A DNA stretch of 64,000 nucleotides from a virus: IMG/VR virus record IMGVR_UViG_3300026549_000035, positions 32,918-96,917 of that record; one strand, given 5' to 3'. This document shows, piece by piece, positions 1 through 46,815 of the stretch. Made by a program: the position numbers and the translations under genes. The notes beneath the pieces were generated by a model. It searched no databases, was not told the origin of the DNA, and saw only the letters and a list, made by a program, of their open reading frames with translations. Position 1 is the stretch's first letter. Each line of letters opens with the position of its first letter.

Positions 1-881
1 GACGTGGTAACTCTCGTCTTATTGCTTGGGAAGGTGAAAGAACTGTTACTTTTACTATGGAAGATGCTCTTATTTCACCCGCAGGTTTTTCTATTTTAAC
101 TGGCGCAGGTTTAATTGACGCAACAGCTGAAAAGCCTATGTATATTCATAAAACAGAACAAACTGATAAAGTTACTATTACTAAATCTGGTGATGACATT
201 ACTCAAGTTTCAATTGTTTTATCAGAAACCCCGTATATTGGTAGTAATAAAGATTCAGAAGATTATATTTATGTAATGCTTCTTGACGATAATGGTGAAG
301 TAATTTCTGAGCCTTATATTGCAACTGAAGGAACATCTACTAATACTATTACAATTTTAGCAGATGAAACTTCTGAAAATCAATCTGATAATGGTTATGG
401 AGAAGGAAAATATCGTAAAAATGATTTAAGTGGTTTTAAGAACAATGGAATCGTTTTAGTAGATTATTATGTTGAAAAAACATCTGGTGCTTTCCAAATT
501 GACATTACTCCAGATAAATTTGGTGGTAACTTCTATCTTGAAGCTTCTACCTTGTTTAGAGCTACTAATGGTGTAGATATGCCTGCTGAATTTGTTATTC
601 CTAACTGTAAGATTCAGTCCAATTTTACTTTCACAATGGCATCTTCTGGAGACCCATCAACCTTTACATTCACTATGGACGCATTCCCAGATTATACTAG
701 ATGGGATAAAACTAAGAAGGTATTTGCTGCTATTCAAGTAATTGAAGATAGTGTAACTAATGCTGAACTTGAGCGTTTAGGAACTGGTCATGATTTTGGT
801 AAGGCTACTACTGGAACAAACCATGCTGAACCTTATGCAACTTATGTTACTGATCAAAAAGATCATATTGAGAAAGTTTAA
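1..881 (+). CDS. tail structural protein paralog A (5' truncated; putative major tail/tube protein)
   Basis: Frame-0 ORF continues from the window start (RGNSRLIAWEGERTVTFTMEDALISP...) and is about 55% identical to the downstream paralog. It contains no TAG codons and ends TAA at 879-881. It lies upstream of chaperone-like genes and the tape measure gene. Confidence 0.6.
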   Translation, partial: RGNSRLIAWEGERTVTFTMEDALISPAGFSILTGAGLIDATAEKPMYIHKTEQTDKVTITKSGDDITQVSIVLSETPYIGSNKDSEDYIYVMLLDDNGEVISEPYIATEGTSTNTITILADETSENQSDNGYGEGKYRKNDLSGFKNNGIVLVDYYVEKTSGAFQIDITPDKFGGNFYLEASTLFRATNGVDMPAEFVIPNCKIQSNFTFTMASSGDPSTFTFTMDAFPDYTRWDKTKKVFAAIQVIEDSVTNAELERLGTGHDFGKATTGTNHAEPYATYVTDQKDHIEKV

Positions 882-898
882 TTGAATAATTTTTAACT

Positions 899-943
899 AA
901 AGGGAAAGGGATTTAATTCCCTTTCCCTTTATTTTTTTATATA
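899..943 (+). terminator. rho-independent terminator
   Basis: GC hairpin AAAGGGAAAGGGATTTAATTCCCTTTCCCTTT followed by a T-run. Confidence 0.7.
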
Positions 944-968: not shown

Positions 969-2570
969 ATGAAATTTGGCGTTCGTGAAATTTGTGATGT
1001 AGTCTTAAGAGCCAAATCAGCTATGAAAATTGGTAATAAAGTTTTTTATAAAAATGAACCAGTTTTATATTTTGACACTTTAAAGACTTCTGCTTTAGAA
1101 AATGCTACAAATACGGTATATGCATAGGGTGGAAGAGGAAATGCCAAATTAATTGCTTGGGAAGGCGAAAAGACTATTACTTTTACTATGGAAGACGCGC
1201 TTATTTCTCCTATGGGATTATCTGTTTTAACAGGAGCGGGATTGGTTAAAGCGGAAGAAAAATCTATTATAGTTCATAAGACTGAAATTACTAATAAAGT
1301 TATAAATATTGGTCCAGGTTTTCCAAATAATGTAGGGATTAAAATTACTTTAAAGAATAAGCCTTACATCAATAAAGATAATATAAAATCTGAAGATTAT
1401 ATTTATGTAATGCTACTTGATGAAAAGGGGGAAGTTTGTTCAGAGCCTTATATAGCAAGTGAAACAGAAGAATAGCTCTTAAACAATAAAGAAATAAGTA
1501 TTTATAAAAATGAATCTACATATTATTCAGATAATAATAAAAGAAAAAATGATTTATCTAAATTTTATGAAGGTTGTTCAGTTTTAGTAGATTATTATAC
1601 TGAAGTAACAGAAAAAGTTTATTAGGTAAATATTACTCCAGAAGATTTCAGCGGTAATTTTTATCTTGAGGCTTCAACTTTATTTAGAACTTCAAATGGA
1701 GTTGATATGCCTGCTGAATTTATTATTCCTAATTGTAAGATTCAATCAAATTTCACTTTTACAATGGCATCTTCTGGTGACCCTACCACTTTTAATTTCG
1801 TAATTGACGCATTTCCAGACTATACTCGATGGAACAAAGATAAGAAAGTTTTTGCGGCGATATAGGTAATTGAATAGAATGAAATTACCTCTAAATTAGA
1901 AAGATTAGGAACTCCGCATAATTATAAAAGTGATGAAGATTATAATCCATTTTTAACATATAAAAAAGAACAAGAACAATATATTACTGATGAATCAGAA
2001 GAATTACTTAATGATATATTCACTTCCATTGATGTAGATGGAAAAATTTATGAAAACGTAGGATATAGAAAGAATGCCGCGTTAGTTTCTAGCAATATAG
2101 TTGGAGGAAGTGAAGGATATACAGTTACAGGTTTTATTCCTTATAGTTATGGATAGGATATTAATATCGTTGGCTTTACTAAAGAGGGAGGAGATTTTTA
2201 GTGTATTTACCTTTATAGTGATAATCATTATACTAATTCCAGATAGATAAAATGTAATGGAAAAGAAGGTATACAAAAATTCTCTCCATATGGCGATGAT
2301 TATAAAAATAAAAAATATATTCGTGTTTGTTTTTATAATACTAATCTTAGTGAAATGGCGGTCTTAGTATCTGGAAATCCAATCTCTCCAGAAGAAGAAT
2401 CTAATAATAATTTACAATCTTTATCTTTATCACCTAATTTAAATTTACAATCTAATAATAATGAAGAAGAGTCAATTTCTCCAGAAGAAGAAGTATCTAA
2501 TTTAGTAGACGAGGATTTAGATATATCTGATATTATTTCTCTTTTGGAAGAAGAAGAGAAAAAAGAATAA
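969..2570 (+). CDS. tail structural protein paralog B (about 533 aa) with acidic low-complexity C-terminal extension
   Basis: ATG at 969 with RBS AAAGGAG. Frame 0 runs unbroken to TAA at 2570 once roughly 6 in-frame TAGs are read as sense. It is homologous to paralog A over the N- and C-terminal blocks (…GNFYLEASTLFR…PNCKIQSNFTFTMASSGDP…). The C-terminus is a tail rich in E, S, N and L. Confidence 0.6.
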
Positions 2571-2599
2571 TTATTTTTTGAGATAAAGGAGTGAAAAAA

Positions 2600-3628: not shown

Positions 3629-3698
3629 AAATTGACAAAAAGAAAAAATTTTGTTAAAATATATATAGAAATAATAAGAGAAAAAGGAGTGTTTATTT

Positions 3699-4145
3699 AT
3701 GGCAAATAATTATTGTATTTATATGCATAAGAATAAAATTAATAATAAAGTATATATTGGACAAAGTTGTAATATTAAAGTAAGATGGCACCCTATTTCT
3801 TATAAAGGTAGTTCATATTTTTATAACGCTATAAAAAAATATGGATGGAATAATTTTGAACATATTATTTTAGAAAATAATTTATCTTTAGAAGAAGCTG
3901 ATAAAAAAGAAAAATATTATATTAAATTATATGATTTTGTTAATAGAGATAAAGGATATAATTTAAAAAATGGTGGAAATAATGGATATCAACTATCTAA
4001 AGAAACTATTCAAAAAATTAAAAATAGTAATAAAATTTATGCAGAAATGCATAAAGAAGATTATATCCAAAGATTAGAAAAAGCTCATACTAAAGCTAGA
4101 AAAAAGGTAATATGTTTAAATAATAATAAAATTTTTGATAGTTAG
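3699..4145 (+). CDS. GIY-YIG homing endonuclease (free-standing)
   Basis: ORF track: YIYMHKNKINNKVYIGQS…RWH…YNAIKKYGWNNF…GYNLKNGG. It contains no TAG codon and lies between two tail-module genes. Confidence 0.85.
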   Translation: MANNYCIYMHKNKINNKVYIGQSCNIKVRWHPISYKGSSYFYNAIKKYGWNNFEHIILENNLSLEEADKKEKYYIKLYDFVNRDKGYNLKNGGNNGYQLSKETIQKIKNSNKIYAEMHKEDYIQRLEKAHTKARKKVICLNNNKIFDS

Positions 4146-4290
4146 CTTATAGCTGCAAATTATGCAGGTTTAAAAAATAGTGCTCCTATTAGTAGATGTT
4201 GTAAAGGTGAAAGAAAAACAGCGGGAAAAGATCCTATAACAGGAGAAAGATTAAAATGGAATTTTTATGAATTAAAGGAGGAAAACAATT

Positions 4291-4815
4291 ATGAGTAAAG
4301 TATCATTTACAAAACTTGGTTTAACTAAAAATACACAAGTTGGAAAATTTAACTGGAATGGATAGGAAATTGAGGTAAAAGCATATCTTCCTATTCAAGA
4401 AAAATTAGAATTGATTAGTAGTGTTATTAATCAGTGTCAAGATGAAAACAATTTTATTAATGACGCAAAAATGGCTATGTATTTAGATTTAGAAACTGCA
4501 TATCATTATACAAACATTAACTTTACAGATAAATTAAAATCTGATCCAGCTAAATTATATGATTTATTAGCAGGAAGTGGATTTTTACAAGATATGTATG
4601 CGGTTTTGCCATAGACAGAGTCGAGAGGTCTAGCTATTTGGTTAGATAAGACCGCAAATCATATTTATGATTATCGAAATAGCGCTTACGGCATTTTAGA
4701 CGCTTTAAAAACCGACTATGAAAATTTAGATTTTGACGCGGAAACATTAAGACAAAAAATTGCAGATCCACAAACGTTAGATATATTAAAAGGTGTATTA
4801 ACCAATTTTGGTTAA
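4291..4815 (+). CDS. hypothetical protein (possible tail assembly chaperone), 174 aa
   Basis: RBS AGGAGG precedes ATG 4291. Frame 1 is open to TAA at 4813-4815 with 2 internal TAGs. The gene sits immediately upstream of the tape measure gene. Confidence 0.45.
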
Positions 4816-4857
4816 TACAATATGTTAAATCTTCTAATTGTAATAGAAGTAATCTTA

Positions 4858-4900
4858 GGGATAGGAAAAAAGATTATTTTCCTATCCCTTTATTTTTTTA
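4858..4900 (+). terminator. rho-independent terminator
   Basis: GGGATAGGAAAAAAGATTATTTTCCTATCCC hairpin followed by TTTATTTTTTT. Confidence 0.7.
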
Positions 4901-4926
4901 ATAGAGAGAGAAAGGAGTAATAATAA

Positions 4927-7900
4927 ATGGCTAAACAACTATATGTTAATTTAGATGTTAGAGCAAATACCTAGCAAGCAAAGAATGAATTTTAGAGTTT
5001 ATAGAAATCTTTATCTGATATTATTGTATAGACAAATAAAATAAGCAATACATCAATTGATTCTACTTCTTTAAGACAAGCTTCTTCTGCAGCTTAGGAA
5101 TTGTAGCGTCATTTATCAAATGCTGTTAATATTGATACTGGAAAGTTGGATTTAAATAAATTAAATACTAGTTTAAAATAGTCTAAAACTAATATTGGAG
5201 AACTTTCTGGAAAGTTATTATCTGTAGGTTCATCTGGAGAATAGGCTTTTGTGAAGTTGGCTCAATCAGTGGCATCTGCAGAAAGACCAATAGTTTCTTT
5301 AGGATCAAGAGTAAATGGTTTATTAACAACTTTAAAAAATACTGCTCGTTGGTAGATTTCTTCTAGCATTTTGCATGGATTCATGGGAGCCATTTAGAGT
5401 GCTTATGGATATGCATAGGATTTAAATAGATCTTTAAATAATATTAGAATCGTTACTGGGTAGAATGCTGATTAGATGAATGAATTTGCTGTCTCTGCGA
5501 ATAAAGCAGCAAAAGCATTAAATACATCTACTTTAAATTATACAGATGCATCTTTAATTTATTATCAATAGGGTATCAAAGATTAGAAAGAAATTGAAGA
5601 TAGAACTGCTACTACCATTAAATTAGCAAACGTTTCTCGTTAGAGTGCTGAAGAAGTATCTAGTTAGATGACTGCGATTTGGAATAACTTTGAAGATGGA
5701 AGTCATTCTTTAGAGTATTATGCGGACGTAATTACTAAATTAGGTGCAACTACTGCTTCAAGTTCTTCTGAAATTTCTGAAGGTATTTCTAAATTTGCTT
5801 CAGTTGCTGATACTGTTGGATTAAGTTATGATAAGGCGGCAGCTTCTGTGGCTACCGTTGTAGCTGAAACTAGACAAAGCGCAGATACTGTTGGTACAGC
5901 TTTTAAAACAATGTTTGCTCGTGTAGAAGGTCTTAAGCTTGGCGAGACTTTAGAGGATGGAGTAGATTTAAATAAATATTCTACAGCATTAAAAACAGTA
6001 GGAGTAAACATTCTTGATTCTAATAAAGAATTAAAGGGAATGGATACTATTTTAGATGAATTGGGTAAGAAATGGAATAGTATAAGTGAAACTCAACAAA
6101 TAGCTTTAGCTCAAACTGTGGCGGGTGTTAGACAATATACTCAATTCATGTCATTAATGAATAATTATGATAAGGTTTTATAGAATGAAAAAATGGCTGA
6201 AGGATCTTCTGGAACTCTTCAAGAATAGGCTGATACTTATGCTGAAAGTTGGGAAGCAGCATAGAAAAGAGTTAAAGCTACAGCTCAAGGTCTTTATGAT
6301 GATTTATTAGATGATAAATTTTTTATTGGTTTAAATAATGTTTTTGCGGATTTATTAACTGGATTAAGTAACTTTATTAAAGGAATAGGCGGACTTAAAG
6401 GTGTCTTAATGGGCGTTGGTTCATTAGTTTTAAATTATATTTCTGATAAAATTTAGCCAGCTTTATCAAATTTAAAAAATACTGCAATAACAATGTTTTA
6501 GAGTCCTGCTAAACAAGCTCAAGTTTATAAAGACTTAATGGACAAAATTATTAGTTAGGCTAAGAATATTTCAAAAGACAGTATGACAGATTCTTTAAAA
6601 ACTAAATTATAGTATACTGATTAGTTATCAACAGCAAAAAATCGTTTAATGTCTGTTGATAAACAATTAACCGAAGCTGAAAAATAGCAAGCTTAGTAGC
6701 AATTAAACATTATTGATATGTATTATTAGGAAACTCAAGCTATTGCTAATAAATTAACTAAAGAAAAAGAAGAGATTGAAGTTGCTGTATCTTCTTTGTC
6801 TACAAATCAAGCTGTTATAGCTATAGAAGAATCTAGAAAAGATGAATTAGCAGGTTTAATTGAACTTTAGAATCAAGCTAGAGAGGGATATGAAAAAGCT
6901 TCTGGTTTTGCTGAGATTATTGAAGCTGCTGAAGCTTATAGAAAAGCTGCTGCTGAAGTTGAAAAATTTAAAACTGAAACTGATTTATTAGCATCTACAG
7001 AAGAAGATCTTGTTATTGAATTAAGAAATGGTTATGATATAATAATGTAGCAATCTAAAGGGTTAGCTGAAGGTGATGGAATAGTTATCAATTTAGGATA
7101 GCATTTAGGAACAACGGCAGAAGGATTTAAAGTATTAGCAGATAAAGCTCGTCAAGCTATGAATGGAACATCTTCAATAACAAAAGGAGAATTAATAAAA
7201 GAGTTTCGTAATCTTCAAGTTATTTTAGATTAGCTTGGTTTATCAAAAATTCCTCAAGTTGAAGACAAATTGTCAAAACTACTCTCTAAAGGAAAGAGAA
7301 CAAATTTAAAAGATTTAGAATCTGGATTTAAAGAATTATTTAATATATTAACTAATTTAAAAATTCCTGTAAGCAAAGATGCAGAATAGATTGAATGGTT
7401 ACGAAAGTTATTAATAGAAACTTTTAAAGATGGTAAAAATATTGAATATTTAAATGGATTATATAATAAAGCTGGAAAAAGTGCTGAAAATTTAGCAAAT
7501 TCTTAGAATCATTTAAATACTGCTCTTGCCTCTTTTAATCCTTAGCATATGATGTCTGGAGTAGAAGTTTTTTCAAAAATTAGTGCAGCTGGAATGCAAG
7601 CAGCGATGGTTATAAATAGTGTTAAATCAATTATTTCAGCTTGGCAGGATGAAGATATGGATCCACTTGAAAAATTTACTACTACATTAATGGGTATTAG
7701 TATGATTGTTCCAGGTGTAATTAGTTCTATTTAGGGAATTTCAACTGTAATGACTGCTTTAACTGCTGCTCATTCGCTTTTAAATATTTAGACTTAGTTA
7801 GGAATAGGTTTAAATGGAGAAAAAATTGCAGTAGATAGTGCGGAAACAGCAGAGACGATATCTAAAACAGCCGCAAATACAGGATTATTAAGTTCTGAAC

Positions 7901-10900
7901 AAGCTTTATTTGCTTAGGAAATGATGATTCAAGCAATAAAAATAAAAGGATCTGCTCTTAATGCTAAAGAAGTAGCTACCATTATTGCTAAAGCAGGTGC
8001 TACAAACATTAATACAGCTGCTTTAGGAGGAGAAGCAATTGCTACAGAAGCGGCAACTGCTGCTCAGTGGAGTTTAAATGCAGCTATGGATGCAAATCCA
8101 ATTGGGTTAATTATAGTTGCTATTATGGCATTAATTGCTGCTTTAGCTCTATTGGTAGTAGGTATTGCGGCTGTTGTTAATGCTAAATCGGAAGAAGAAA
8201 AAGCTTTAGAAAAAGCCAATAAAGAATTAGAAAAAGCTCAAGAAGAAGCTAAAGCAGCTAAAGAAGCTTATGAAAATTTATATAGTAAAGTTTCTGATTA
8301 TAAAACTGCGTATGAGGCTTTATAGAAATGCACTAAAGGAACTAAAGAATGGAAAGAAGCTTTTGAAGAAGTTTCAAATAAAGCTAATGAATTAATAGAA
8401 GCTTATCCAGATTTATTAAAATATGAAAATCTTTTTGATGCAAATGGATTAATTAATTCTAAAGCTCTAGATAAAGCTTTAAAAGAATATGAAGATAGAG
8501 TTTCTGCTACAAAAATTACTACAATTTAGAAACAAGCTAATGTAACATCTGCTCAATATGAAGTAAATAAATCAAATTTATCTGATAAAATAAAAATTAA
8601 TGATGTTAATGAACAATCTGCAAATAATATAGCTAAAGCTATAACTAGTAGTTTAAATTATCATCCAGTCGAAGCAGGAAAAGCTTTAGTTTCTAGTATT
8701 GAATCTGCGCAATTGGATGAAAAAATTTCAAATGGAGTTACTTCAGCTTTATTAGCTAACAAGGATAAAATAAATAATTATTTTGATTCAGAGTCTGTCA
8801 GTGAAGTTATTAAAAATTATTTAGAAAAAAATGCTGAAGAATATTCTTTAGATAATTCAAGAATAGACGAATTGACAAATGAATTTACTAAAAAAACAAT
8901 TTCTTTAGGAAATGACTTCGCTGATTTATCAGCTGAAACTAAAAAGACTATTACTGCGATGACAAATGCTTCTAAAATGATAGCACAAGAATTCTTTGGT
9001 GAAGAATTAAATATGTCTAATCCAGAAAAAATTCTTTCTTATAATGAGGCTTTATAGAATTATTAGATTGAGACAGAAGAAAAAATAATAAATGCAATGA
9101 ATAACGCTACCGTTGAGGCAACTGAAAAAATGGTGCAAAGTCGTGGTGCGGCTGGTATGACAACTGGAGGAATAATTTCAGAAGATTCTTATTTAAATGA
9201 AATTGGTCAAACTTATATTAATAACAATACAGATGAAGAAAAAAAGAATTGGAAATTTAAAAATGTTAGAAATGATTATTGGAATGGTACTTTAGAATAT
9301 GTATATGTAGATGAAAAAGGAGCAGAATAGGAAATAAGTGCTGATCTAGTAAAAGATTTTATGGTATAGTATGAAGCTCAAAGAGATAGAGATAAAATTA
9401 TAGCAGAAGGAGAAACGAATTCAAAAAATCAATAGTCAGATTCAGAAAAAGCTATATCCTAGTATTTAGTAAATTCAAATCTTAATGGAGCAACTATTAA
9501 ATAGGCTACAGTTTTATCCAAAATTTCAGATCCATTAGAAGCTTATTTTGGAGAAGATTATACTGATGATGATATTAAAGAAAAACTTGCTGTCGCGTGG
9601 GGAAAAGATGTTTCTGAAATTTCAGATGATGAATTTGAAACTTGGAAAAGTGGAATTGCAAGCAATTTAAAAGAAGTATAGGACATGATCGCAGAAACTC
9701 CTAATTTTATTAAAAAAGCTATGGGAGATGACTTAATTAATTCTTTAAGTGTAGAAGCTTTTCCAAAAGTTACTGAAATGTTTTCTTAGGCTTATGTTTA
9801 GAATGGTCAAGCTGGTGTAGATATGTTAAAGAGCATTGTTGATTCTGCGGGAGATGAATCTAGTTAGGTTATGGCTGCTTTATCAGATATGGACTTTGGC
9901 ACAATGAATATTGACGATGCTAATACTGCATTAAAAAATTTAGGAATCTAGTTTTAGTTAAGTGAAATATAGTTTTATAGTTTAAAAAATACTTTATAGG
10001 ATATTAGTACTGTTACCGCTGAAACAGCTAAAGAAACTTATAAGACTGTTTCTTCAATTCTTTCTAAGCTAAAAGCAGAAGGAGATATTATTGAAGATGA
10101 GGATTATTAGAAATTATTAGCTTTGAATCCTGCGATAGAGTCTTTTTTCATTACTTTAGCAGATGGAACTCATATGTTAACTGGAGAAGTAAAAGATTTT
10201 AAAACTGCTATGCAATCAGCTTCACTTAATCAATTACAATAGGTTTAGGAAAATTCTCAAAAGACAGCTTTAGCTTATGGAAAACTTTCTTCAAGTGGTT
10301 CAGTATCAGGATCTTTAAATAATATTAATGATTTTGAAAATAGTTCTTAGGCTGAAATATTAAATGCTCAAATTCAAGTTATGCGTGATTAGGGAGAAGT
10401 CGATCGTGCTAATAATTATGAAGTTCAATTAAAAGATGCTTTAGATACTGGAAATCTTGAAAAATTAAATCAAATTTTAGAAAATGGTAATTAGTCTTGG
10501 ATAGATTATGGCGTTTCAACTGAAGAGGCGACAAAAAAAATTGAAGAAGCTGAAAAAGAAGCTGGAGAGTTAACAGAAGCTATAAAAGAATAGTAGTATC
10601 AAAACGAAATTTCTAATGCTGGATTGGAATATGAAGCAACTGAAAATTATGCTGATGTATTAATGGAGCTTTATGAAGCAGAAGGTTTAAGTAAAGACGC
10701 GGCAAGAGAGTTAGCTATAGCTAATCAAAGAGTTGATAGAGGTTTAACTTCTTTAAATGATAATTTAGATGATTGGAAAACTAGTTTAGAAAAAACAAAT
10801 AAAGCTAGTGCTGAATATGCTGAAACTATTTCTGGATTAAGAGAATCTTTTTCTGATTTATTAAATATTGCAGATGGAAGTGAGTTATCTCTTAGTTGGA

Positions 10901-13900
10901 TTGAGAAGTGGGCTAAGAGCGCCGATATGACAAAAATCCTTGATGGAGATACAGAAGCCTTAGAAAGATTTAGAAAATCAGCTTTTACAGAAATGACTAC
11001 AAACGTATTTTCAGACATGAAAGATTCAGTTGAAGCTTTAATAGAAGATTTAGATTAGGTTAAAGATGCAGCTTATTTATCTGATTTATAGAATCTTTCA
11101 AATGTTTTAAATGATGGAACTTTTTCTGCTGAAAATTTACGAAATGCAATCTAGGATTTAGGAAATCAAGAGATTGGATCCGGCGCAACTTTAAGTGATG
11201 AGTATGTAGAATCTTTAAATAGTATGTTAGCTGCAGGTTTAATGACAGAGCAACAATTAAATGATATTTTTGCTACTATTGGATATAAACCAAAAGTTCG
11301 AACTGCGTCTGTTGATCAATGGGTTGAAATACCTATTTATAAAACAACCGAAGAAATTACTGAAGACACTTCTTCTGGTCTTATGAGTAATCTTTTTGGT
11401 GGAACTCGAAAATCTACTCGTACTGTTGTTTCAAAAACAGTGTAGACTGGTACAGAAAGAATGTTGCAAAAAGTGCCTGTCACTTAGATAGAATCTGCTG
11501 ATACAGCAGGAGGAAATATTGAAATTGTTAATGCAGGAAGTAATAACATTACTCCTTCTTATAGTTCTACTACAACGGGCTCAGGCAGTAACAGTGATTC
11601 TTCATCAAACTCTTCTTCAACACCTACTACTAAAGTAGCTTCTCATACTCATGAAATAAATCGTTATACAGCAGAAGAAAATGCTATTGATGGACTTTCA
11701 AAACAATATGAGAAACTTAATAATATTAAAGACAAGTCTTTTGGAAAAGGTAAAATTCAAGCTATTGAAAATGAAATTAAAGCTTTAAAAGAACTTAAAT
11801 AGGCTTCTACCAACTATATGGATGCTATCGTTGGTGATGGTAATGGTAAAAGAATTGCTGAAGCTATATATCGTGGTGAAAATATTGGCGATCTATTAAG
11901 AAATGGCGCAATTAGTGGTAATTTAGGTTCTGATTATAGAGCTTTAAGCTATGGCATTAGTGCTTCTGGAAAATAGGTTGAATATACTGCTAAAGATGAA
12001 GCAGGAAATGAATGGTTGGCTTCTCGAGATTATAATATAAATGATTTTAATGCCATGTTTGGAACTAACATTCATTTTGATTTAGACGCTTTTGGCAATA
12101 TACAAAATGCAGATTCTATTAGAAATTAGCTTCAATAGTTAAAAAATAATGAATCTGATGCTTATTCTAGTATTGCAGATCCAACTGCAAGCTCTACAAC
12201 TAGATATAATGAACGTATGGCTTATATTGATGAAATATTAGACCGTATGGACACTTTTGGAGATTCTATTAATACTCTAAGTGAACAATCTGAAGAATAT
12301 CTTGACTATATTACTTAGCTTCAAGAGAAAAATGCTGAATTAATTACTTCTAAAATGGAACTTGGAGTTGAATTAGGAGATAAGAGTTTACGAAGAATCG
12401 ATCGTGCTTTAAAAGTTTTAGGAAATGATATATATAGAAGTACTGAAGCTATGAAAAAAGCTTTTGAATTAAATGATCAAAAAATAGAGTCTTCTTAGGA
12501 AAAAGCTTAGTCTTATCAAGAGATGATGAACGAAGCTGAAAGAAGATTTGCTTTATATCAAAAAAATCCTTTAAATGAAGATGCTATTACTCCTGCCGAA
12601 TATGCTGAAATGCTTTCTACTGCTGAAGAAGGATTTGAGTCTATTGCAGATGAAATGCGAGAATATATGAATTATTTTTATGATATGTATTCTGGAATGC
12701 AAGATTATTGGGAAGAAAAAATATCTCGTATTACTAAACAAATGGAAGATAGTATTAAAGTTTTAGAATATTATCAAAAAGTTTTAGAGCTTACAGGGCG
12801 TTCTGGAGATTATGAATTAATTGGAAAAATTTTAGAGGGACAAGCAGAAACAGCTAAGACTATATTTGAAACTTCTCAAGCTCGAGCTGAATTAGCCAAG
12901 AAAGAATGGGAAAGACAAAAAGATGATCTTGAAAAAGCAAAATTAGATCCAACTCTTTCTAAAGATTTATTAGATACATTAGAAAATATGACTGAATTAG
13001 CTTATGAAAAATATGTTGAAGCAGTTGAAACTGCAAGAGAAGATTCCTTAAATTATTTAGAAATAACTCAAACTGCTTTTGAAAATAAAATTAAACAAAT
13101 GCGAGTTGAATCAGAAAAATTCTTGACTAACGGAAGTGATTTTGATAGTTTAAATAAATCTATGGAAAGACAAAAGAGTCTGTCTGAGGATTATTTAACT
13201 AAAACTAATTAGCTTTATGAAACTAATAAGATGTTACGTCAATTAAATCAAGATATTGATAAAACAGACAGTGTTATAGCTAAAAATAAATTAAAAGCAT
13301 TTGCAGATGAAATTTCAGCCATGCAAGACCAAGAGAAATTAAGTAATACTTCTTTAGAGATTGCTAAAGCGAAATATGAAATTTTATAGGCTCAAATTGC
13401 TTTAGAAGATGCCTAGAATGCAAAATCCACAGTATAGTTAAGAAGAGATTCTGAAGGTAATTATGGATATGTATACACAGCTGATGAAGAAGCTGTAAAT
13501 AATGCTTAGCAAAACTTAGAAGATAAAGTAAATGCTTTATATAATTTAGGTAAAAAAGCCAGTGAAGATTTTGCTGAACGAATGATTTAGTTAGAATAGG
13601 AAGAGTGGGCAGAAATTGAAGAAATAGCTAATAATACTATTCTAACTACTGATGAAAAGAATATTAAAATTGCTGAACTATAGGAATATTATAATGCTAA
13701 AAGATAGGCTCTTTCTGAGCAATATGAAGAAGCTAATTTGGCTCTTCAGCAAGGAGCAGTCGCGCAAAGACTTTTAATCACTGATAAATTTAATACTGAA
13801 AATCTTGATATTGAAAAAGTTGCGGCTGAAGCTAGAGCAGAAGCTTGGACAGAAAGTTTTGCTACTACAATAAAAGATTAGAATACTTATGAAGCACATT

Positions 13901-14853
13901 TTAAATAGCTTGCATCACAATTAAAATCTGAGATGTAGAAATTGGATGATAAAAGAAAATAGCATGAACAAGCAACTAAAACAGGAAATAAAGAAATTAA
14001 AGAAAGTATTGATGATATTACTGATGCAGTTGATGATTTAAGTTATGAGATTTTAAAAAGAGATGGTCTTTTAGATTCATACAGTGATGCTTTAAATGCT
14101 TCTAATGCTTTAAAAGATTCTTTTAAAAGATAGTATGAAACAGCAAGAGAATTAGCTAATCAATATTCTAATGCCGCAGATAGAGCTAGTAATTTATATA
14201 CAAAAACAGTTGATTTAATTAATGCTTAGGTTGCTCTTAACCATGCAAATAATGGAGCTACTTATGTAGAGTGGGGTCCTGGAGGAGTTACAGCAGATTA
14301 TAATGGTAATACTGTTTCTAATGGTGGAAATGGAAATAACTCTAGTAATAAAATTTCTGTTGATAATAAATCTCAGTTTAAAAAAGTAGACCCAAGTAAA
14401 GTAATTTTATGGCAAGATGAATATTATCATTTTAAAAATGGAGATATTTCAAAGATTAATAATAGAGGCGCTAAATATGGATGGGAATGGGATGAGCTTG
14501 GTTATAAATATAAAACAGGTGGTTATACAGGCTCTTGGAATGGACCAGATGTAGAAGAAAATGGAAAGTTAGCTTTCTTACATCAAAAAGAATTAGTATT
14601 AAATGCAGATGATACTGAAAATATGTTAAATGCAGTAAAATTAATCCGTTAGATTAGTGAATCTATTGATTTACAAGCTGCAGTTTAGAGTTCTTATTCC
14701 GTTGGAGCAATTTAGTTCCCTGGAAATAATCAAGTTTTATAGCAAGAAGTTACTATTCATGCAGAATTTCCAAATGCAACTGATCATAATGAAATTGAAG
14801 AAGCATTTAACTCTCTTGTTAATAGAGCTTCTCAATATGCAAATCGTAGTTAA
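4927..14853 (+). CDS. tail tape measure protein, about 3,308 aa, with dozens of TAG sense codons
   Basis: RBS AAAGGAG then ATG 4927. Frame 1 is continuous to TAA 14851-14853, and every in-frame stop is TAG. Hallmark tape-measure blocks are present (LGATTASSSSEISEGISKFASVADTVGLS…TAFKTMFARVEG), with long coiled-coil regions. The C-terminal region is the conserved Gram-positive siphophage block (…KTGGYTGSWNGPDVEENGKLAFLHQKELVLNADDTENM…). Confidence 0.9.
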
Positions 14854-29063: not shown

Positions 29064-29082
29064 TTAAAAAACCTCTCCTTCA

Positions 29083-37453: not shown

Positions 37454-38686
37454 AGTCTCTGCGAGACCTAACTGCATTTTTTATACCCTTCTTTTCAGAA
37501 TATTTAAAGGGATTAGACTATACCATAAATTGATTTATAAATTTCTTGATTGTCTAATTTATTTTTTCTTATTGGTAGTTTAAATTGATTAGTAATTTCT
37601 TTCCATGTAACTCCTCTAGAAATATCTCCTACAGTATTTTTTCCTATGTTATAAGAATTAGCAATTTCCTATAAAGTATTACTAGTAAATATAAGCTAAT
37701 AACAAATATTTTGGACTTCTAATTCAGATAATTTATTCTAATAAACATTCTTTTTTATATTTTTTCTAATAGGATAATTTAAATCCTTAGGACACCAGCT
37801 GTTTTTTCCCCTGTTTATTTCCCCAACAGTATAATTACTTATACCTAAAGTTAAACCGATATCTACAATAGATAAATTTAAATCATTTTTTAACATATCT
37901 ATAATCTTTTTAACTAAATCATTATTTAATTTAGTATGATTTGGGGTTTTTCTTATTGGATAATCTAAATTAGCTTCATAAAAACTTCGCCCTCTATTAA
38001 TATCACTAATACAAGTGAGACTTACTCCAAAATCATTTGCAATTGTTTGAAATGTTATATTACTATTTTTTAACAAGTCTTTAATTTCCATTTCAGCAGA
38101 ACCGCATATTAATTGTTTAGAGGTGCTTCGTTTTCCTCCTTTAGTCATATTATATCCTTTTCCAGAAGTATAATATGCATCAGTTATTTTTATTTGATAA
38201 ATTTCTCTTTCATCTAATTTTTCTAATGGAATAAAATCTTCTACAACCTCTATTGAAAAATTATCAATTCCATATTTTTTTAAAGCTCGATGAAAATACA
38301 ATTCATCATTTTTGGTATCCTATAAATGTTTATTAATTCTATCTTGTAATCTACAGGTAGTCTAACCAATATAAATTTTTCCATTAATTTTATTAGTAAA
38401 TTTATAAATTAAACCAGTTCTCATAAAAATAATTGCTCCTTTTTTACTTTTTCATATTATTATGAAAACTGGGACAATCGCATTTTTCAATTTTGTCCAT
38501 TATAGTCGTTGAACGTTCCTCTGTTCTAGAGGCTTCGCTGCGTCTGGTTGCCCAATCCTTAACGATTTTACCATATCTTGGTCGCTAACCTTGCCACTTA
38601 TATATTCCTATATAAGCTTGGTTGTTAAGGCTCTAAGGGTGTTCCCGCAATTTAGGACATTTATAGTGGGCCAGTGTTAGGCTTTA
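37454..38686 (-). mobile_element. group I intron (distinct subtype) in nrdD carrying a GIY-YIG homing endonuclease gene
   Basis: Exon 2 ends …ALKHGTLAVG (…CAGTGGGT), complementary to an internal guide-like GGCCCACTA. A roughly 260-nt 5' core with hairpins (GTGGGTTAAAGCCTAACACTGGCCCAC…) precedes the ORF. After the ORF comes a roughly 60-nt 3' tail …GTCTCGCAGAGACTCTTTAG. Confidence 0.6.
37513..38424 (-). CDS. GIY-YIG homing endonuclease, about 303 aa
   Basis: MRTGLIYKFTNKINGKIYIG[TAG]TTCRLQDRINKHL[TAG]DTKNDELYFHRALKKYGIDNF…GYNMTKGG, followed by two repeated HTH modules (…IANDFGVSLTCISDINRG…, …LTLGISNYTVGEINRGK…). Confidence 0.8.
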
Positions 38687-39023: not shown

Positions 39024-39830
39024 ATGTTTACCTAATGTTGCCATTAGCACTGACTATATCTTCTATCTTTTTATTAAGATAGCCTTCCGCTTCGAATATG
39101 TGCCTATCTCATATTCTACTCCCTTACATTCATCAGGGATAGTCGATACAGGTTTTTAATCTTTATCATATTTCCAAATATATCCATAAGCTGTTTTTTG
39201 TTTATTATTTAAACAATAATTAATTCCAACATTTTTAGATTCATTTCCTAAAAATCTAGCTGCTTCTCTTGCTGTTTGGAATCTTTTTAATAATTGTCCA
39301 TTTTTATTATACATTAAAACATCAGCAACATATTTAGAATTTTTATTACCTTTTCCTTTTTCTGAAATAATTTCTTTAATATAATCAGAATGTTTATGAT
39401 ATTCAATACCGCCTAGATCAGCATTATATCCATTTGGTAGTAAAGAATTATACTTTTGAATATATTCACGTTCTATTTTTGATATTTCATTATCTTTTAT
39501 ATTTGTTAAAAGTATTTCAAAAGAAAAATTTTCAATTCCATTTGCCTATATTGCTTTTCCTATAAATGATTTAGAACTTGGTTTTTTATGTTCTGCGAAT
39601 CGTTCATATGGATTTCTATTTGTAATACCTATATAATTTTTATTATTTAATAAATTTGTAATTTTATATAAACTATACATTTTATCACCTTCTCTTTTTA
39701 AGATGATAAAGATTAAACTTCCCACGGTCTCATCCGCATGGGACCTAACCGTTAGCGCAGTCACATTATTTGCGGCCGCACACCCTCAGGCGAGGTTCAA
39801 AAGGTTTTAGATGAGCTATAGTTTCCACTT
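39024..39830 (-). mobile_element. group I intron (IA2-like 'GCTAACGG' family) in nrdD carrying a GIY-YIG homing endonuclease gene
   Basis: The 5' exon ends …ATGGGT. The intron carries …GCGCTAACGGTTAGGTCCCATGCGGATGAGACCGTGGGAAG… (compare T4 td …AACGGGGAACC…AATCCCGTG…). After the ORF come CCTGTATCGACTATCCC…ATAGTCAGTGC then a hairpin, ending G. Confidence 0.65.
39157..39680 (-). CDS. GIY-YIG homing endonuclease, about 174 aa
   Basis: MYSLYKITNLLNNKNYIGITNRNPYERFAEHKK…NGYNADLGG…KTAYGYIWKYDKD. The start is anchored by track ORF 39546..39764. The 3' end coordinate is approximate. Confidence 0.75.
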
Positions 39831-41174: not shown

Positions 41175-41408
41175 TTAACTATTGTTGTCCTAATCCGCAA
41201 TGAGATAGTTAATATACCAAATTGCTTTTTTTAAATCTTCTACACCATTTTTATATTTCCATCGCCACAAATACTTAATTGCATTTGCTGTACAGAAAGA
41301 TTCTATTCCCTCAAGACCTATTGTTGCAGCCTTGAGGGCTTCTATACATTCAATTCCACCCTCGTTGTAATGACGAGGATGATTTACATTATCATTTTGA
41401 ATTATCAT
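41175..41408 (-). CDS. DUF3310-family phage protein, about 77 aa
   Basis: …HPRHYNEGGIECIEALKAATIGLEGIESFCTANAIKYLWRWKYKNG… matches the HPxHY…IEcI signature. Confidence 0.55.
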
Positions 41409-41436
41409 TGTATATTTACTCCTCTGTTGAAATTAT

Positions 41437-41847: not shown

Positions 41848-43250
41848 TATTCTCCATTCTCTCCTTTATATCTTTCACTCTAAAGAATTAAACTACCATC
41901 ATCATTAACTTCTAAAATATGATATAATTGATGCCCAACAGAAGAAGCATATTTTTTAGTTACAAAAGTATCTCCAAGTCTAATTCCTTGCACCATAATC
42001 ATATTACCTCTATTAAAAAAACTTTTTTCTATTACATGTTTAACTCCGTCTAATCCTTTTTCTGAAATTTGTTTATCAAATAATGCAAAATATTCTTTTC
42101 TGAATTTTACATTAACAACTCCGTTAGTCGTTAAAATTGTTACTGTACCTTTTGTCTTATTTTTAGCAATACAAGTTCCACAAATACGACAAAGTTTAAA
42201 GATATGAATAGGCTTATTCTTTTTATAAAAGGTTTTCTCTATTTCAGGTTCTTCAGGTAAATTATAAAAATTTTTTAAACCATATCTTTCAAAATCAACC
42301 TTTGCTAATTCATGTTCATGTTTATAGAAGCAAAGAACTTCCATTTCCCAAGCAGATAAATTCGCCTTTCCCGCATATTTATCCCAATCTGCTTTAAATA
42401 TTCGAGTATTTAATTCAGATAAAATTTCTTGTCCATCTTGCGCAAGCCATTCTCTAAAAACATCCATATAAGATTGATATATTTTATCCCATTTTTTCAT
42501 ATTTAACGTATTATCTGAGTTAATTAAATTAGCGACTTCTATTTCTACTAAAAAATCAATTGCTCGATTATCAACATGATAACATACTGAATCATTCTTT
42601 ACTTTACATATAGCTTTTAAATATCTATTAAATTCATAAACTCTAAAAGCTAATTTTCTTTCTTCTGTATCTAATGGAACTAAGTCTTGTTTTAATAAAG
42701 TTGGAAAATTTTGTAATGTTAATCTAGCTTTTTTATCACAAGTTTCCCATATATACCAAGCCATAGCTTTTTTTCTATCCATCATTTCATCAAAAGCTCC
42801 CGCTTTAATTAATGATATCATAGGTTGTTTTTTTGGTTTTACTTTTTGATAGAAATCTTTTATTGAACTATATGGACGATTTTTAATAATCTGATTCACA
42901 AAATCATCGTTTACATTTAATAAAGCTTTCATTCCAAAAAGAATTCGATTGTTTTCTACATCAGGTTTAAATCCAAAATCAGAAGTATTAATATTTACTA
43001 GACTAACATTAATACCTGCATTAATAATTTCATTCAAAGCTTTTGCAACTTTACCATAATCAGTACTTGCTGCTTTTTTTTGAGTTTCATTTTCTTCTGA
43101 TTCTAATACATTTTCATCATCGTCATCTTCTTCTAATGAACCACTGTTTACAACTAAGCAAGCCGTATCCCAATATATAGGATTCCAATGAGTTCCTAAA
43201 TATAAAGTTTGCGCTCCAACAAAACTATATGCTAAAGCGTGTATGCATAA
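41847..43250 (-). CDS. dnaE: DNA polymerase III alpha (DnaE-type) exon 3
   Basis: …CIHALAYSFVGAQTLYLGTHWNPIYWDTACL… aligns with DnaE HSAAYALVSYQTAWLKAHYP…, and the C-terminal region runs to TAA at about 41847. The 5' boundary is approximate. Confidence 0.65.
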
Positions 43251-44462
43251 TTAATTTATTACTGACTATTTTTTACAGGTGTTGTAGTGAAGTTGGCAAA
43301 ACTTCTTACCTGCACACTGTTTCCCAATGCGTATCAATAGCATCAGTACTCTCTGTCTAACCAGAGATAGTCGATACAACATTTCTTATTTAAAAGGTTT
43401 ATTATATTATTTATTTCTTAAAGGATATTGATATTCTTTTTGTTTATGCGAACGTCCAGAATTAATATTTTTTACAGTAGAATAAGATTTTCCCCATTTA
43501 TCAGCAATTTTTTTTAATGATATATCAGAAGTTAAAATATCTTTAATAATTCCTTTTACCCAAATTTCATTATCTTGTTTTCTACAGCCTTTATTACAAA
43601 GAGGATATTTTTCTTCTTTATCATAAAAATATTTTCCTGTATTTATCATAGATAAAAATCCAGCGCTTTTTATATTAAAATCTTTTTGAATAGAACTATA
43701 TTTTTCTCCAGATTTTATTCTTTTTTTAATTTCTTTAATTTCTTTTTGAGAAAATTTACTTTTAGCATTTTTCTTTAAAGGATAATCAAAGTCAGGATTA
43801 AAAAAATTAGTTCCTGTATTGATATTTACTAAAAAAGTTCTTTTTAACTTTGGAGAATACAAATTCTCAATATCATCATATTCTTCATCATTTAACAATC
43901 TTTTTTGAATATCTTTAATCTCATTCTCTGTAAATAATTTTGAGCGTTTTAATTTTTCTTCATAGCTTAAAGGAGGCTTTGGACATCCCTCTCCACCAAT
44001 AGTTACATTATATCCATTTTCATCTTTTAAAGAATGATAATAAGCAATAAAAAATTTTTCTCTTTCATTTATAAAATCTTGACTTTCTTCGTCTGCAATC
44101 TCTTCTAAAACTTCATAATCAAAATTTTCTATGCCATATTTTCTAATTGCGCAATGAAAAGGAAGCCAATAGCCAAAAGCTTTTTCATTAAATGATTCAC
44201 TTTTATGTCCATTATATCTTTTTTGTAAATTATTCGTTTGTCCAATATAACAATGTCCATTTATTTTATTTGTAAATTTATAAATATAAGTCATCTTTTT
44301 TCACTCCTCTCATGGATATTTGAAAAATATAATATCTCTTTTAAATAGATTTGTCACGAGATTTTACCCTCGTTAGCAATTATTTTATTTATTTGCCAAA
44401 TAAATTATCAAAATAATTACCCCCGTGATGAGCGGGTTAAGTGTGTAAGCGCCATTACAACG
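43251..44462 (-). mobile_element. group I intron (IA2-like family) in dnaE carrying a GIY-YIG homing endonuclease gene
   Basis: It splits the conserved DnaE motif GY(S/G)F|N-K-S-H-S-A-A-Y. The 5' part carries …GCTAACGAGGGTAAAATCTCGTGACAAATC…. The 3' part carries …TTGTATCGACTATCTC…AAAAATAGTCAGTAATAAATTAATTATG. Confidence 0.6.
43407..44294 (-). CDS. GIY-YIG homing endonuclease, 295 aa, TAG-free
   Basis: ORF track: MTYIYKFTNKINGHCYIGQTNNLQKRYNGHK…GYNVTIGGEG…, with repeated C-terminal modules. Confidence 0.85.
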   Translation of the reverse strand: MTYIYKFTNKINGHCYIGQTNNLQKRYNGHKSESFNEKAFGYWLPFHCAIRKYGIENFDYEVLEEIADEESQDFINEREKFFIAYYHSLKDENGYNVTIGGEGCPKPPLSYEEKLKRSKLFTENEIKDIQKRLLNDEEYDDIENLYSPKLKRTFLVNINTGTNFFNPDFDYPLKKNAKSKFSQKEIKEIKKRIKSGEKYSSIQKDFNIKSAGFLSMINTGKYFYDKEEKYPLCNKGCRKQDNEIWVKGIIKDILTSDISLKKIADKWGKSYSTVKNINSGRSHKQKEYQYPLRNK

Positions 44463-45665
44463 CTAAATGAATAACCCATCTGAGGTCCAGCTCCGTAACG
44501 CCAAACATATTGACCTAATTTTTCACTTTTAGCTTGCCGCAAAACCTTATCTCTTAATTCAGGAATTTTATCCATCAATTTTTTACCAACCACTTTACGA
44601 GCTTTGTTAGCATCTCCTAAACTAAAATTACAAATATTAGGATCCATTAACATTTTCATAAGCTGCTCTTGGCTTGGTGGAACTCCATATGACTATTTAA
44701 AATATGGTTCTAATATTTTTTGTTCAGTTTTAGTTAAACCAAAATCATCCATTTCTTTATACCATAAAGAAATATCATTTTTATAACGATAATATTTATC
44801 TATAGGACGTTCTTCGCCTTCTTCACCCATCAATCTCATTAATCCATTTGCATCAGCCATTTCAAGAATAGATTGAGGTTTAAGAAGTTTAGCGGTTTTT
44901 ACACCCTCTGTGCCTTCAAATTGGAAGGTATTAATAACAGACATCTTTCCTAATGCTTCCCATATTTTTTTATCAGTTTCTATTGGAAGAACATTTGGAT
45001 GAAGATATTTATTATAAATTTCTCGAAGAGATAAATCTTTTTCAATTTCACCGTCTTCTTGAAGAAATTGAATTGTTTGAACAATTTTATCTTGTGCTTC
45101 AGTTACAAGAAAATCATATTTTGTTAATCCCATATATTCGGCATCATGTAAATCATATTGAGTAATAATTTTGCCTTTTGGAGTTTTCATAAAAGCACTA
45201 TGTTCAAATGGATCACCATCAAATAAAACAATTCCAGAAGCATGAGAACTTCTTTTATTTATTGTTCCTTCAATAGCTAAAATAATATCTAATAATCCGG
45301 GGTAATTATTTACTTCATAAATAAAAGTTTTTACAGGTTTTCTATGTTTTTCTTCATTACCATGTACAACATCTTTAATACTCCATAAAAATCCTCGTTC
45401 TTGTGGAATTAAAGAAGCCATATACTGGGCTTGGTCAACATCGATACCATCTGGATACTCTTCACTACGATAACCTCTACATGCGGTTAAAACAGCAGAC
45501 TTAGAACCTTCTGTCCCAAAAGTAGAAATACGAGCACAACCAAAAATTTCTTTTGCCCATTCTGGAACATCATTATTAAACATTTTACTGCGTTCAGTTG
45601 CAATTTTTTGAAGAATTAAATTACATTTAGATGGACATATATCTATATCAATATCCTTTTATTAT
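44463..45665 (-). CDS. dnaE: DNA polymerase III alpha (DnaE-type) exon 2
   Basis: DIDIDICPSK…ISTFGTEGSKSAVLTACRGY…AIEGTINKRSSHASGIVLFDGDP…GLTKYDFL…LGDANKARKVVGKK…GYSF. These are the DnaE core motifs (PDIDIDF, RHASTHAAGVV, AMGKKK). Boundaries are approximate. Confidence 0.65.
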
Positions 45666-46815
45666 TGGACTATATCTTTTACAATAAACTACTGAGAATA
45701 ATTACTTCATTTATTGTAAGAGTGCGCTACGGAATAGTGCTTATCTCTATTCCTCTATATTAGTCTCTACACTCCAATAAAAACCTTTATATAATGTTTT
45801 ATTTTTAATGGCTTTATCTAAACCTGTATGACCTTTCATATTTAAAAAATCTAATACTGCTGTTTTAGCATTAAAAATTTTTATTAAATTATAATCTTTA
45901 TCATACATATAAACTTTTTTACCATTAATAGCATTATTTTTACTTTTTCCATACATTCCATTTTTTACTCCTGAAGTTTTTCCTTTACTATGTTCAGACA
46001 TTAATTTTTTAGATTCTTCAGTATGATGTTTTCCATACATTCCATTTTTTGCTCCTTTAGTAGCCTCTGACATAGTTTTACGATATTCTTCAGTTTTCAT
46101 ATAAGATGTATCTCTATTTTTACGAATTTTTTCTTTAGTCTCTTCTGTCAAATGAATACCATATCTAGGATTATTTTTTCCTTTATATTTATTACTCATT
46201 TTTTGTGAATATTTTTCTTTTTCTTCTTTACTCCATCCAGCTCTTGTATTACCACCATTTCCGCCTTCGTGAATATTATAAAAATTTTCATCTTGAACTG
46301 CGTTAAAAGCAGAAATAAATTCTCTTTCTTTATTAAAATTTTCTTCTTCATTAGATGAAATAAAAAGAATTTCTTTTTTAAAATATTCTATGCCTATTTT
46401 TTTTATATCTTCTTTTAACTTAGTTCCACTACCTAAGTATTTATCATCTAATTCTCCGTAGTGTTTTCCGATGTATTTTTTACCAGTTAAAAGATTTGTT
46501 GTTAAATAAATATAATGTTGTTTCATATTATCACCCTTTCATTATTATATGATTAAAGTGATATTGACTTTGACAGACATTGACCAAGATTTTTATATAG
46601 TTTTTATTAAAGCACGGTATTACGTGTCTAGCCTTTTCAGGACCACTCGCTCTCTTAGTCAGCTGATTCGCATATTATAAAATATATATAATATCTTATT
46701 TTGCTGATACCGTTAGCTTGTGCTTTACCAATTTTTGACAGGAATTTTTGGTAAGCCACAAACACCTCTTAGCAGAGTTCACACTCTTTTTTTACAACTC
46801 GGCAATATCAATATT
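45666..46815 (-). mobile_element. group I intron (diverged member of the IA2-like family) in dnaE at the PDIDIDF motif, carrying a GIY-YIG homing endonuclease gene
   Basis: Exon 1 …ERIELGSL and exon 2 DIDIDIC… rebuild the conserved DnaE motif. The 5' part carries …GCTAACGGTATCAGC…ATACCGTGCTTTAAT…. The 3' part carries …ATATAGTCCAATAATAAAAGG. The repeated GAATTTTTGGTAA motif also occurs at 46725-46760. Confidence 0.55.
45747..46526 (-). CDS. GIY-YIG homing endonuclease with NUMOD3-like repeats, 259 aa, TAG-free
   Basis: ORF track: MKQHYIYLTTNLLTGKKYIGKHYG…NIHEGGNGG… plus repeated NxxYGxHxTEEtK modules. Confidence 0.85.
   Translation of the reverse strand: MKQHYIYLTTNLLTGKKYIGKHYGELDDKYLGSGTKLKEDIKKIGIEYFKKEILFISSNEEENFNKEREFISAFNAVQDENFYNIHEGGNGGNTRAGWSKEEKEKYSQKMSNKYKGKNNPRYGIHLTEETKEKIRKNRDTSYMKTEEYRKTMSEATKGAKNGMYGKHHTEESKKLMSEHSKGKTSGVKNGMYGKSKNNAINGKKVYMYDKDYNLIKIFNAKTAVLDFLNMKGHTGLDKAIKNKTLYKGFYWSVETNIEE

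Follow-up and report, generated by a model that had tools for sequence, protein, structure and literature searches.

Why do a few genes stay free of TAG in a phage genome in which TAG is read as glutamine? The question is raised by a stretch of 64,000 nucleotides (nt), here called the window, of the IMG/VR virus record IMGVR_UViG_3300026549_000035, positions 32,918 to 96,917. A preliminary description of this DNA listed one tail gene (tail-tube paralog A) and three GIY-YIG endonuclease genes as lacking TAG amid TAG-dense neighbours, and proposed that such genes are either recent arrivals from standard-code genomes or genes that must be translated before the suppressor system is active. The unevenness was confirmed for paralog A and for the endonuclease gene at 43407, while the endonuclease genes at 3699 and 45741 were each found to carry an in-frame TAG. 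After comparison with related phages, the heterogeneity is a conserved, family-specific gradient of TAG avoidance together with a single TAG-free endonuclease lineage, which differs from the set of genes first picked, and neither recent arrival nor a need before suppression explains the whole set. TAG is probably a costly, second-rate Gln codon, its use in each gene being set by the strength of translational selection.

Recoding of the window

The window is recoded from TAG stop to Gln and belongs to an SPβ-like siphovirus. With the standard code, 46% of the window is taken up by open reading frames (ORFs) of at least 100 amino acids (aa); the figure is 92% with TAG taken as sense, as against 52% in a control with TGA as sense. 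In-frame TAGs correspond to Q of standard-code orthologs at 60 of 176 aligned positions (background, 4.7%), and two conserved Gln columns of the tube paralogs A and B are CAA/CAG in A and TAG in B. The gene model of 62 genes was built with TAG as sense, and hence no gene in it can end in TAG; the stop codons are TAA for 54 genes and TGA for 8. Over the whole window, with a GC content of 28.7%, Gln is encoded by 297 TAG and 518 CAA/CAG codons. As many as 55 of the 62 genes carry in-frame TAG, those for DnaE, DnaB and primase included, indicating that suppression is already operating when these three proteins are made and thus acts from early infection. This share exceeds the 26-71% published for alternatively coded phage clades on standard-code hosts (Borges et al. 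preprint).

The + strand of positions 1-26598 forms a tail module with the tandem tube paralogs, a 3308-aa tape measure, a tail fibre and baseplate-like genes. Past 26598 the genes are mostly on the − strand and include those for NrdD, DnaE, a RecD-like helicase, a RecJ-like protein, primase, DnaB and an AAA_24 protein, and nine GIY-YIG endonuclease paralogs are dispersed over the window. A nucleotide search of GenBank phages gave no relative, the sole match being a chance hit of 36 nt; the GenBank phages that come closest in DnaE, with about 38-40% aa identity, are phAss-1 and Enterococcus phage EF1. Relatives were found in IMG/VR by use of the tube protein, in more than 260 loci on contigs of 130-200 kilobases (kb), TAG-recoded and standard-code genomes being mixed; single loci are referred to below by L numbers. 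The clade is classed as SPβ-like because of the precomputed Pfam families PF27173 (YomU_Tube) and PF27364 (YonB), plus YonD_N, YomW and YomV.

TAG usage within the window

The genes and the region on which the statistics bear are as follows.

3..881, + strand: tail-tube paralog A (YomU_Tube family), lacking its 5' end, which falls outside the window; 0 TAG, 7 CAA/CAG
969..2570, + strand: tail-tube paralog B, with a C-terminal extension; 8 TAG, 6 CAA
43407..44294, − strand: GIY-YIG endonuclease inside DnaE insert 2; 0 TAG, 9 CAA
39807..49484, − strand: contiguous TAG-poor block; 11 TAG, 92 CAA/CAG

The use of TAG is heterogeneous among the 62 genes (chi2 = 113, df 61, permutation P < 2e-4), and this global result stands against pure chance, by which genes with few Gln codons would be TAG-free through sampling alone. 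The other statistics confined to the window agree with chance. TAG-free genes number 7 against 5.5 ± 1.9 expected (P = 0.30), and the nine endonucleases are homogeneous when compared with each other (chi2 = 6.6, df 8, p = 0.58), their pooled TAG fraction of 22/76 (0.29) being the same as that of the surroundings. Taken singly, paralog A (P = 0.015-0.042) and endonuclease 43407 (P = 0.017-0.047) have uncorrected values of about 0.015-0.05, which fail correction for 62 genes. By the count of TAG against CAA/CAG that the preliminary description had proposed as a check on chance, the contrast among endonucleases is therefore lost on window data alone, and for endonucleases 3699 and 45741 chance is a full account.

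The real signal in the window is a TAG-rich tail module, with TAG at 173/384 Gln codons (0.45) against 124/431 elsewhere (0.29; p = 1.5e-6), and a contiguous TAG-poor replication block, with TAG at 11/103 (Fisher p = 1.4e-6 against the remaining genes beyond 26598). The block holds NrdD exon 1, the ORFs 41175-41432 and 41416-41865, DnaE with two endonucleases, and the RecD-like helicase, with Pfam as the source of the assignments. Across the window, the TAG fraction also falls with the fraction of C-ending codons (rho = -0.31, p = 0.036). With the relatives taken into account, both paralog A and endonuclease 43407 depart strongly from chance; counts of Gln codons in a single genome are underpowered, and a family-level comparison is required.

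TAG avoidance in tail-tube and head genes

Paralogs A and B are 58% identical and differ in TAG use (Fisher p = 0.018). The absence of TAG from paralog A, in 292 codons, was correctly described at the outset, while the about 6 TAGs first given for paralog B fall short of the 8 counted. Both tube paralogs match PHROG 2729, 'virion structural protein' (E = 1e-36 and 1e-54), and PF27173 YomU_Tube is precomputed on all 120 homologs among the matches listed as well as on both paralogs of the close relative L167. The gene order is tube A, tube B, a 342-aa gene, an endonuclease (missing from L167), a 174-aa gene and the tape measure, the tube genes lying upstream of the chaperone and tape-measure genes, and long-form homologs of paralog B occur in relatives. 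A sequence search of PDB gave no match for the tube or the YonB-family protein, and a Pfam search with a local model set from which PF27173 was missing gave none for the tube, YonB-like or 340-aa protein; a review of SPβ does not name the functions of YonB and YomU.

In 39 distinct recoded relatives, the single-copy tube ortholog has TAG at only 10/390 Gln codons (2.6%), as against 3918/11491 (34%) for the neighbouring genes of the same 39 loci (Fisher p = 2e-53, a value overstated as the genomes are related). For paralog A this comparison already refutes sampling by chance. It also bears on the proposal that the whole TAG-free set consists of recent arrivals from standard-code genomes, in which TAG has not yet been acquired: the tube gene is core and syntenic, its orthologs are TAG-poor in every recoded relative, and the avoidance extends over the clade, so that the proposal does not hold for paralog A.

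The same depletion was found for two further virion families. The TAG fraction is 0.031 for the tube, 0.019 for the 375-aa YonB family (PF27364) and 0.010 for a head protein of 276-340 aa, whereas it is 0.30 for the portal, 0.31-0.57 for the connectors and 0.39 (0.386) for the tape measure, which shows PF10145 (PhageMin_Tail) on its L167 ortholog and is the gene richest in TAG of the window.

4927..14853, + strand: tape-measure protein, 3308 aa; the most TAG-dense gene, 96 TAG against 94 CAA/CAG

The pattern is repeated in L167, with TAG at 0/14 Gln codons for YonB, 0/18 for the 342-aa protein, 2/10 for tube A and 7/14 for tube B. The three depleted virion families stand out also by the share of C-ending codons for Phe, Tyr, Asn, Asp, His and Ile, which is 0.23-0.30 against 0.175 or less in the others (rank p = 0.003). 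Under translational selection, highly expressed genes reportedly prefer C-ending codons for Phe, Tyr, Ile and Asn. The TAG-avoiding genes are alike in this C-ending bias, and they would be the most heavily translated genes. The likeness has a limit in that the disfavoured codon is here a reassigned stop, the cost of which presumably includes premature termination in addition to slow decoding.

CAG makes up 61-75% of the canonical Gln codons in the three depleted virion families and 9-32% elsewhere. In the head-tail loci L001-L080 (around 3600-5800 and 9800-10850), the TAG-avoiding virion genes use mainly CAG, and the TAG-rich genes use CAA nearly exclusively, as though CAG had given way to TAG where selection is weak. 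Because CAG, a single C-to-T step from TAG, is abundant where TAG is missing, selection against TAG is indicated rather than missing mutational opportunity. The latter reading, in which slow, conserved genes gained fewer TAGs after the code change in the absence of any selection, draws on the observations that the depleted families (tube, YonB family and DnaE) are the most conserved ones, that CAA to TAG takes two steps and that CAG is rare in endonucleases. It is nevertheless very unlikely, as the one-step synonymous change from CAG to TAG has been open to the CAG-rich virion families yet remains unfixed, and synonymous change is unconstrained by protein conservation.

TAG depletion in replication genes

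41850..48206, − strand: DnaE (DNA polymerase III alpha) in three exons, 48206-46807, 45655-44471 and 43244-41850, assigned by Pfam and by alignment with the intact gene of L082

The Pfam domains PHP, DNA_pol3_alpha, finger and HHH_6 were detected in DnaE, the profile positions running on across the pieces. In the window DnaE is TAG-poor, with 4 TAG against 44 CAA/CAG, and the RecD-like helicase has 1 TAG. Among 40 recoded relatives, the TAG fraction of the DnaE family is 34/1773 (0.019), by which chance is refuted for the replication block as well, and those of other replication families are 0.046 (helicase), 0.059 (AAA_24), 0.061 (DnaB), 0.074 (primase), 0.096 (NrdD) and 0.225 (RecJ). The replication families do not have the C-ending codon bias, and a different cause, for instance early expression, is therefore plausible for them.

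This clade-wide depletion speaks in favour of the second proposal of the preliminary description, in which the whole TAG-free set must be translated by the standard machinery of the host before the suppressor is active. That proposal agrees with the published model of alternatively coded phages (Borges et al. preprint; Yutin et al. 2021), and the two endonucleases with least TAG do lie inside DnaE. Plausible as it is for TAG-poor replication genes, it is not general: 55 of the 62 genes need read-through, among them DnaE (4 TAG), DnaB (8), primase (6) and the helicase (1); depletion is most pronounced among late virion genes, the tube included; relatives of endonuclease 45741 at the same early-gene location carry internal TAGs; and no code-switch factor can be recognised among the 7 TAG-free genes. 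As an explanation of the whole set, it is on balance unlikely. TAG is shunned no less in the presumably most abundant late proteins than in the replication enzymes, which extends the early-versus-late picture, and a cost of decoding is indicated and not only timing.

A TAG-free endonuclease lineage within DnaE

45656..46806, − strand: DnaE insert 1, probable intron with endonuclease 45741; about 1.15 kb, junction ELG|DIDID seamless
43245..44470, − strand: DnaE insert 2, probable intron with endonuclease 43407; about 1.23 kb, junction SFSV|IHALAY seamless

Both junctions match the intact 1332-aa DnaE of L082. DnaE exons 2 and 3 have a stop codon 1-2 codons upstream and no ATG for 24 and 105 codons, respectively, and splicing seems to be required because the downstream exons are without a start codon. 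A group I RNA core was not detected by Rfam at the gathering score, nor at E <= 1 over 36500-47000, and the inserts are for this reason called probable introns only.

All members of the 43407 lineage are TAG-free, in recoded and standard-code genomes alike. In five recoded genomes (the window, L105, L161, L163 and L165), TAG was found at 0/50 Gln codons of this lineage, against 73/202 for the other endonucleases (Fisher p = 4e-9), and this difference, too, stands against chance. As an explanation of the TAG-free set taken together, chance is thus quite improbable. The same DnaE site is occupied by the lineage in at least three standard-code phages (L096/097, L110/112/114 and L118), and four distinct copies were found in standard-code loci. 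In a small tree of the lineage, the code context is not monophyletic.

Recent arrival from standard-code genomes, if it applies at all, fits 43407 only. The cassette is common to standard-code relatives and discordant with the exons: the nucleotide identity of insert 2 to standard-code relatives is 78-84%, while that of the flanking exons is only 67-75%. Insert 2 is absent from L081 and L082. In L085, the closest recoded relative, with exons 92-94% identical, the site of insert 2 holds a different cassette with an unrelated endonuclease carrying 5 TAGs. The search for homologs nevertheless showed that, although the lineage is present in standard-code relatives, its nearest homologs (84-87% aa identity), out of roughly 270, are in other TAG-recoded phages, and the arrival was therefore not recent. 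The composition check is uninformative on foreign origin, as GC, GC3 and codon usage of 43407 match those of the other endonucleases. No copies more than 95% identical to the TAG-free genes were found in standard-code phages. As to the other two endonucleases first listed as TAG-free, 3699 has a conserved sense TAG, and 45741 belongs to a lineage found only in recoded phages; relatives of both in recoded phages carry internal sense TAGs. Recent arrival is thus quite unlikely as the cause of the whole set.

Insert 1 is 99.8% identical to L085 1093-2243, whereas the flanking DnaE exons are 94% identical, which suggests, from sequence comparison, very recent spread between two related phages. It was not found in L082 nor in the standard-code loci L108, L112 and L118, and L097 matches only its first 205 nt or so.

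A proposed cost of TAG as a glutamine codon

The reading that we prefer is that per-gene use of TAG follows the strength of translational selection. At TAG a suppressor tRNA would have to compete with release factor 1, so that read-through would presumably be slower or leakier than normal decoding, and the abundant virion proteins (tube A, the YonB-family head protein and the head protein of about 340 aa) may avoid TAG on this account. The TAG-rich paralog B, a duplicated and extended copy, would probably be a minor tube variant. DnaE and the RecD-like helicase, and in relatives also DnaB, primase and NrdD, would be depleted because they are likely made first, when the suppressor tRNA is scarce. 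Most other genes would drift to 30-60% TAG, including the endonuclease family with 29% in the window and 36% in relatives, and endonucleases 3699 and 45741, each with an in-frame TAG, would be unremarkable members of it. The 43407 lineage would be a mobile one that occupies the same DnaE site in phages of both code types and is TAG-free everywhere, the cause being either movement between code types or selection for expression independent of suppression. The recoding, the codon counts, the depletion at the level of families, the correlation with codon bias and the discordance between cassette and exons are shown by the data, whereas the scheme infers how strongly and when the genes are expressed, how efficient the suppressor is and in which direction transfer took place.

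Several points weigh against it. For abundance, the only grounds are the identity of the genes, their synteny and their codon bias; the tube assignment comes from the name of the Pfam family, the AlphaFold2 model of the tube ortholog (mean pLDDT 51.7, pTM 0.47, quality poor) being too poor to confirm it; and the YonB family is considered a putative capsid protein from its position. The relatives are not independent samples, and all pooled P values are overstated for this reason. Crass-like (crAss-like) phages preferentially recode a tail-tube family, the opposite of what the window shows (Borges et al. preprint). In the window itself, DnaB (TAG at 8/20 Gln codons), primase (6/14) and RecJ (13/23) are not depleted. 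By ARAGORN, no tRNA gene was found in the 64-kb window or in 60 related loci, the search for a suppressor tRNA with CUA anticodon being confined to these. For 43407, simple inheritance of the TAG-free state contributes, and two other endonuclease lineages common to both code types carry TAG in their recoded copies, by which the rule that lineages shared by both codes are TAG-free was rejected.

A more tentative extension, possible but not favoured by us, is that TAG density is both a tunable throttle of translation and a barrier to gene flow. As a throttle, tube A would supply the bulk subunit, and the TAG-rich, extended tube B would be kept scarce by cumulative loss in read-through. As a barrier, endonuclease lineages locked to the code by their sense TAGs would spread only among recoded phages, while in lineage 43407, which would be code-neutral, selection would keep TAG out because of its movement between phages of both codes that infect the same host together. 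This lineage offers a specific example with which to ask if selfish elements spread less readily among related phages when their genetic codes differ.

Relation to known systems

The general phenomenon is already published, and the accepted framework is unchanged: earlier work has described replication genes that can be read under the standard code, gene families with an excess or a shortage of recoded stops, recoded intron endonucleases and changes of code over short evolutionary distances (Borges et al. preprint; Yutin et al. 2021; Babkin et al. 2023, PMC10607447). The refinements added here are the strong avoidance of TAG by presumably abundant late proteins, marked by a codon-bias signature, and the code-neutral endonuclease lineage.

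The window resembles the code-15 gut phages (crAss-like, Lak, Agate, Garnet and others; Ivanova 2014, Yutin 2021, Borges 2021/22) in the reassignment of TAG to Gln at low GC, in modelled genes that end in TAA or TGA, in the presence of both codes within one clade, in the depletion of replication genes with enrichment of tail and structural genes, and in recoded stops within endonucleases of early genes. It differs from them in that recoding is near genome-wide (55/62 genes) and not restricted to a late block. Agate phages preferentially recode an intron endonuclease, whereas the window has one intron-borne lineage that is wholly TAG-free.

With phAss-1 (proposed 'Phassvirus' group) and Enterococcus phage EF1-like phages (PMC10607447), large siphoviruses of around 135 kb, the window has in common the genome size range, the siphovirus type, a tape measure of about 3100-3400 aa, the TAG-to-Gln code, the mixture of recoded and standard-code members and a homologous DnaE-type polymerase. 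In contrast, the identity of DnaE is only about 38-40% at the aa level and there is no nucleotide similarity; the window represents a different, uncultured SPβ-like clade.

The GIY-YIG homing endonucleases of T4- and SPO1-like phages (I-TevI, Seg and Mob) are similar to those of the window in the combination of GIY-YIG with NUMOD/HTH modules, in insertion into conserved genes for replication and nucleotide metabolism, in presence/absence and cassette replacement, and in cassettes that are closer between genomes than the exons. Unlike them, the endonucleases of the window must work across genetic codes; the sense TAGs of most lineages would truncate the protein in a standard-code phage.

Other endonuclease genes

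3699..4298, + strand: free-standing GIY-YIG endonuclease (Pfam GIY-YIG); one sense TAG at 4143-4145
45741..46526, − strand: GIY-YIG/NUMOD3 endonuclease in DnaE insert 1; only TAG at 45747-45749, two codons before TAA
31250..32092, − strand: GIY-YIG paralog; 6 TAG
37513..38424, − strand: GIY-YIG paralog between NrdD pieces; 5 TAG
39156..39680, − strand: GIY-YIG paralog after NrdD exon 1; 1 TAG
52172..52891, − strand: GIY-YIG paralog splitting the RecJ-like gene; 3 TAG
57537..58427, − strand: GIY-YIG paralog; 2 TAG
62890..63726, − strand: GIY-YIG/NUMOD1 paralog; 3 TAG

By Pfam, GIY-YIG (PF01541) is above the cut-off in eight of the nine endonuclease genes, the ninth having NUMOD3 and a weak SegE GIY-YIG match, and NUMOD1, NUMOD3, I-HmuI-like or HTH domains are present in several. 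Mobility shows in the polymorphism of fixed sites among relatives: DnaE is intact in L082, insert 2 is missing from L081, another cassette occupies site 2 in L085, and L167 is without 3699. In recoded relatives, the endonuclease family has TAG at 73/202 Gln codons (0.361), and 1 of 21 genes is TAG-free.

The gene at 3699 had been delimited as 3699-4145 and called TAG-free. It was cut at the sense TAG 4143-4145, and the ORF runs on to the TAA at 4298. Past the TAG, 50 further residues share about 80% identity with the ortholog in L019, where this codon is likewise TAG and the gene has 4 TAGs in all, and they also align with a standard-code homolog and a paralog. A true stop at this TAG was rejected, as the homology runs past the conserved codon. 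A reassigned stop thus misleads gene calling, one "TAG-free" gene being merely truncated at a sense TAG. This gene lies between the 342-aa gene and a chaperone-like gene; the close relative L167 (12695-12779) lacks it, and L019, which is more distant, has it in the corresponding position.

The gene given earlier as 45747-46526 likewise extends to 45741, with TAG at 45747-45749. Whether this TAG is a true stop is immaterial, as only two non-conserved residues follow it; elsewhere in the lineage, internal TAGs are present at varying positions. Of the three GIY-YIG genes first taken as TAG-free, only 43407-44294 has been retained. For the remaining six, a range of 2-12 TAGs had been given, and the counts are 6, 5, 1, 3, 2 and 3; the supposed endonuclease with 12 TAGs is gene 2582-3628, which is not an endonuclease.

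Other features of the window and its clade

Three further replication genes on the − strand are interrupted. NrdD (36923-41102) is in three pieces, split by the endonucleases 39156-39680 and 37513-38424, and is one 749-aa gene in relatives. The RecJ-like gene (50863-53738) is split by the endonuclease 52172-52891 and is one gene of 583 aa in relatives. DnaB (55356-57249) consists of two ORFs with a gap of about 170 nt that contains no endonuclease, the gene of relatives being a single one of 518 aa. No RNA family was detected in the window by Rfam at the gathering threshold.

For four of the replication loci of relatives (L126, L139, L144 and L145), ORF coverage rises from 0.79-0.81 to 0.93-0.94 with TGA, not TAG, as sense, and the clade seems to have standard-code, TAG-recoded and TGA-recoded members.

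Five small genes at 26935-29508 (− strand) have an unusually high GC content of 36-42%, few TAGs and low-complexity products rich in Gly, Asn and Ser, one of which shows a weak match to the BclA C-terminal domain.

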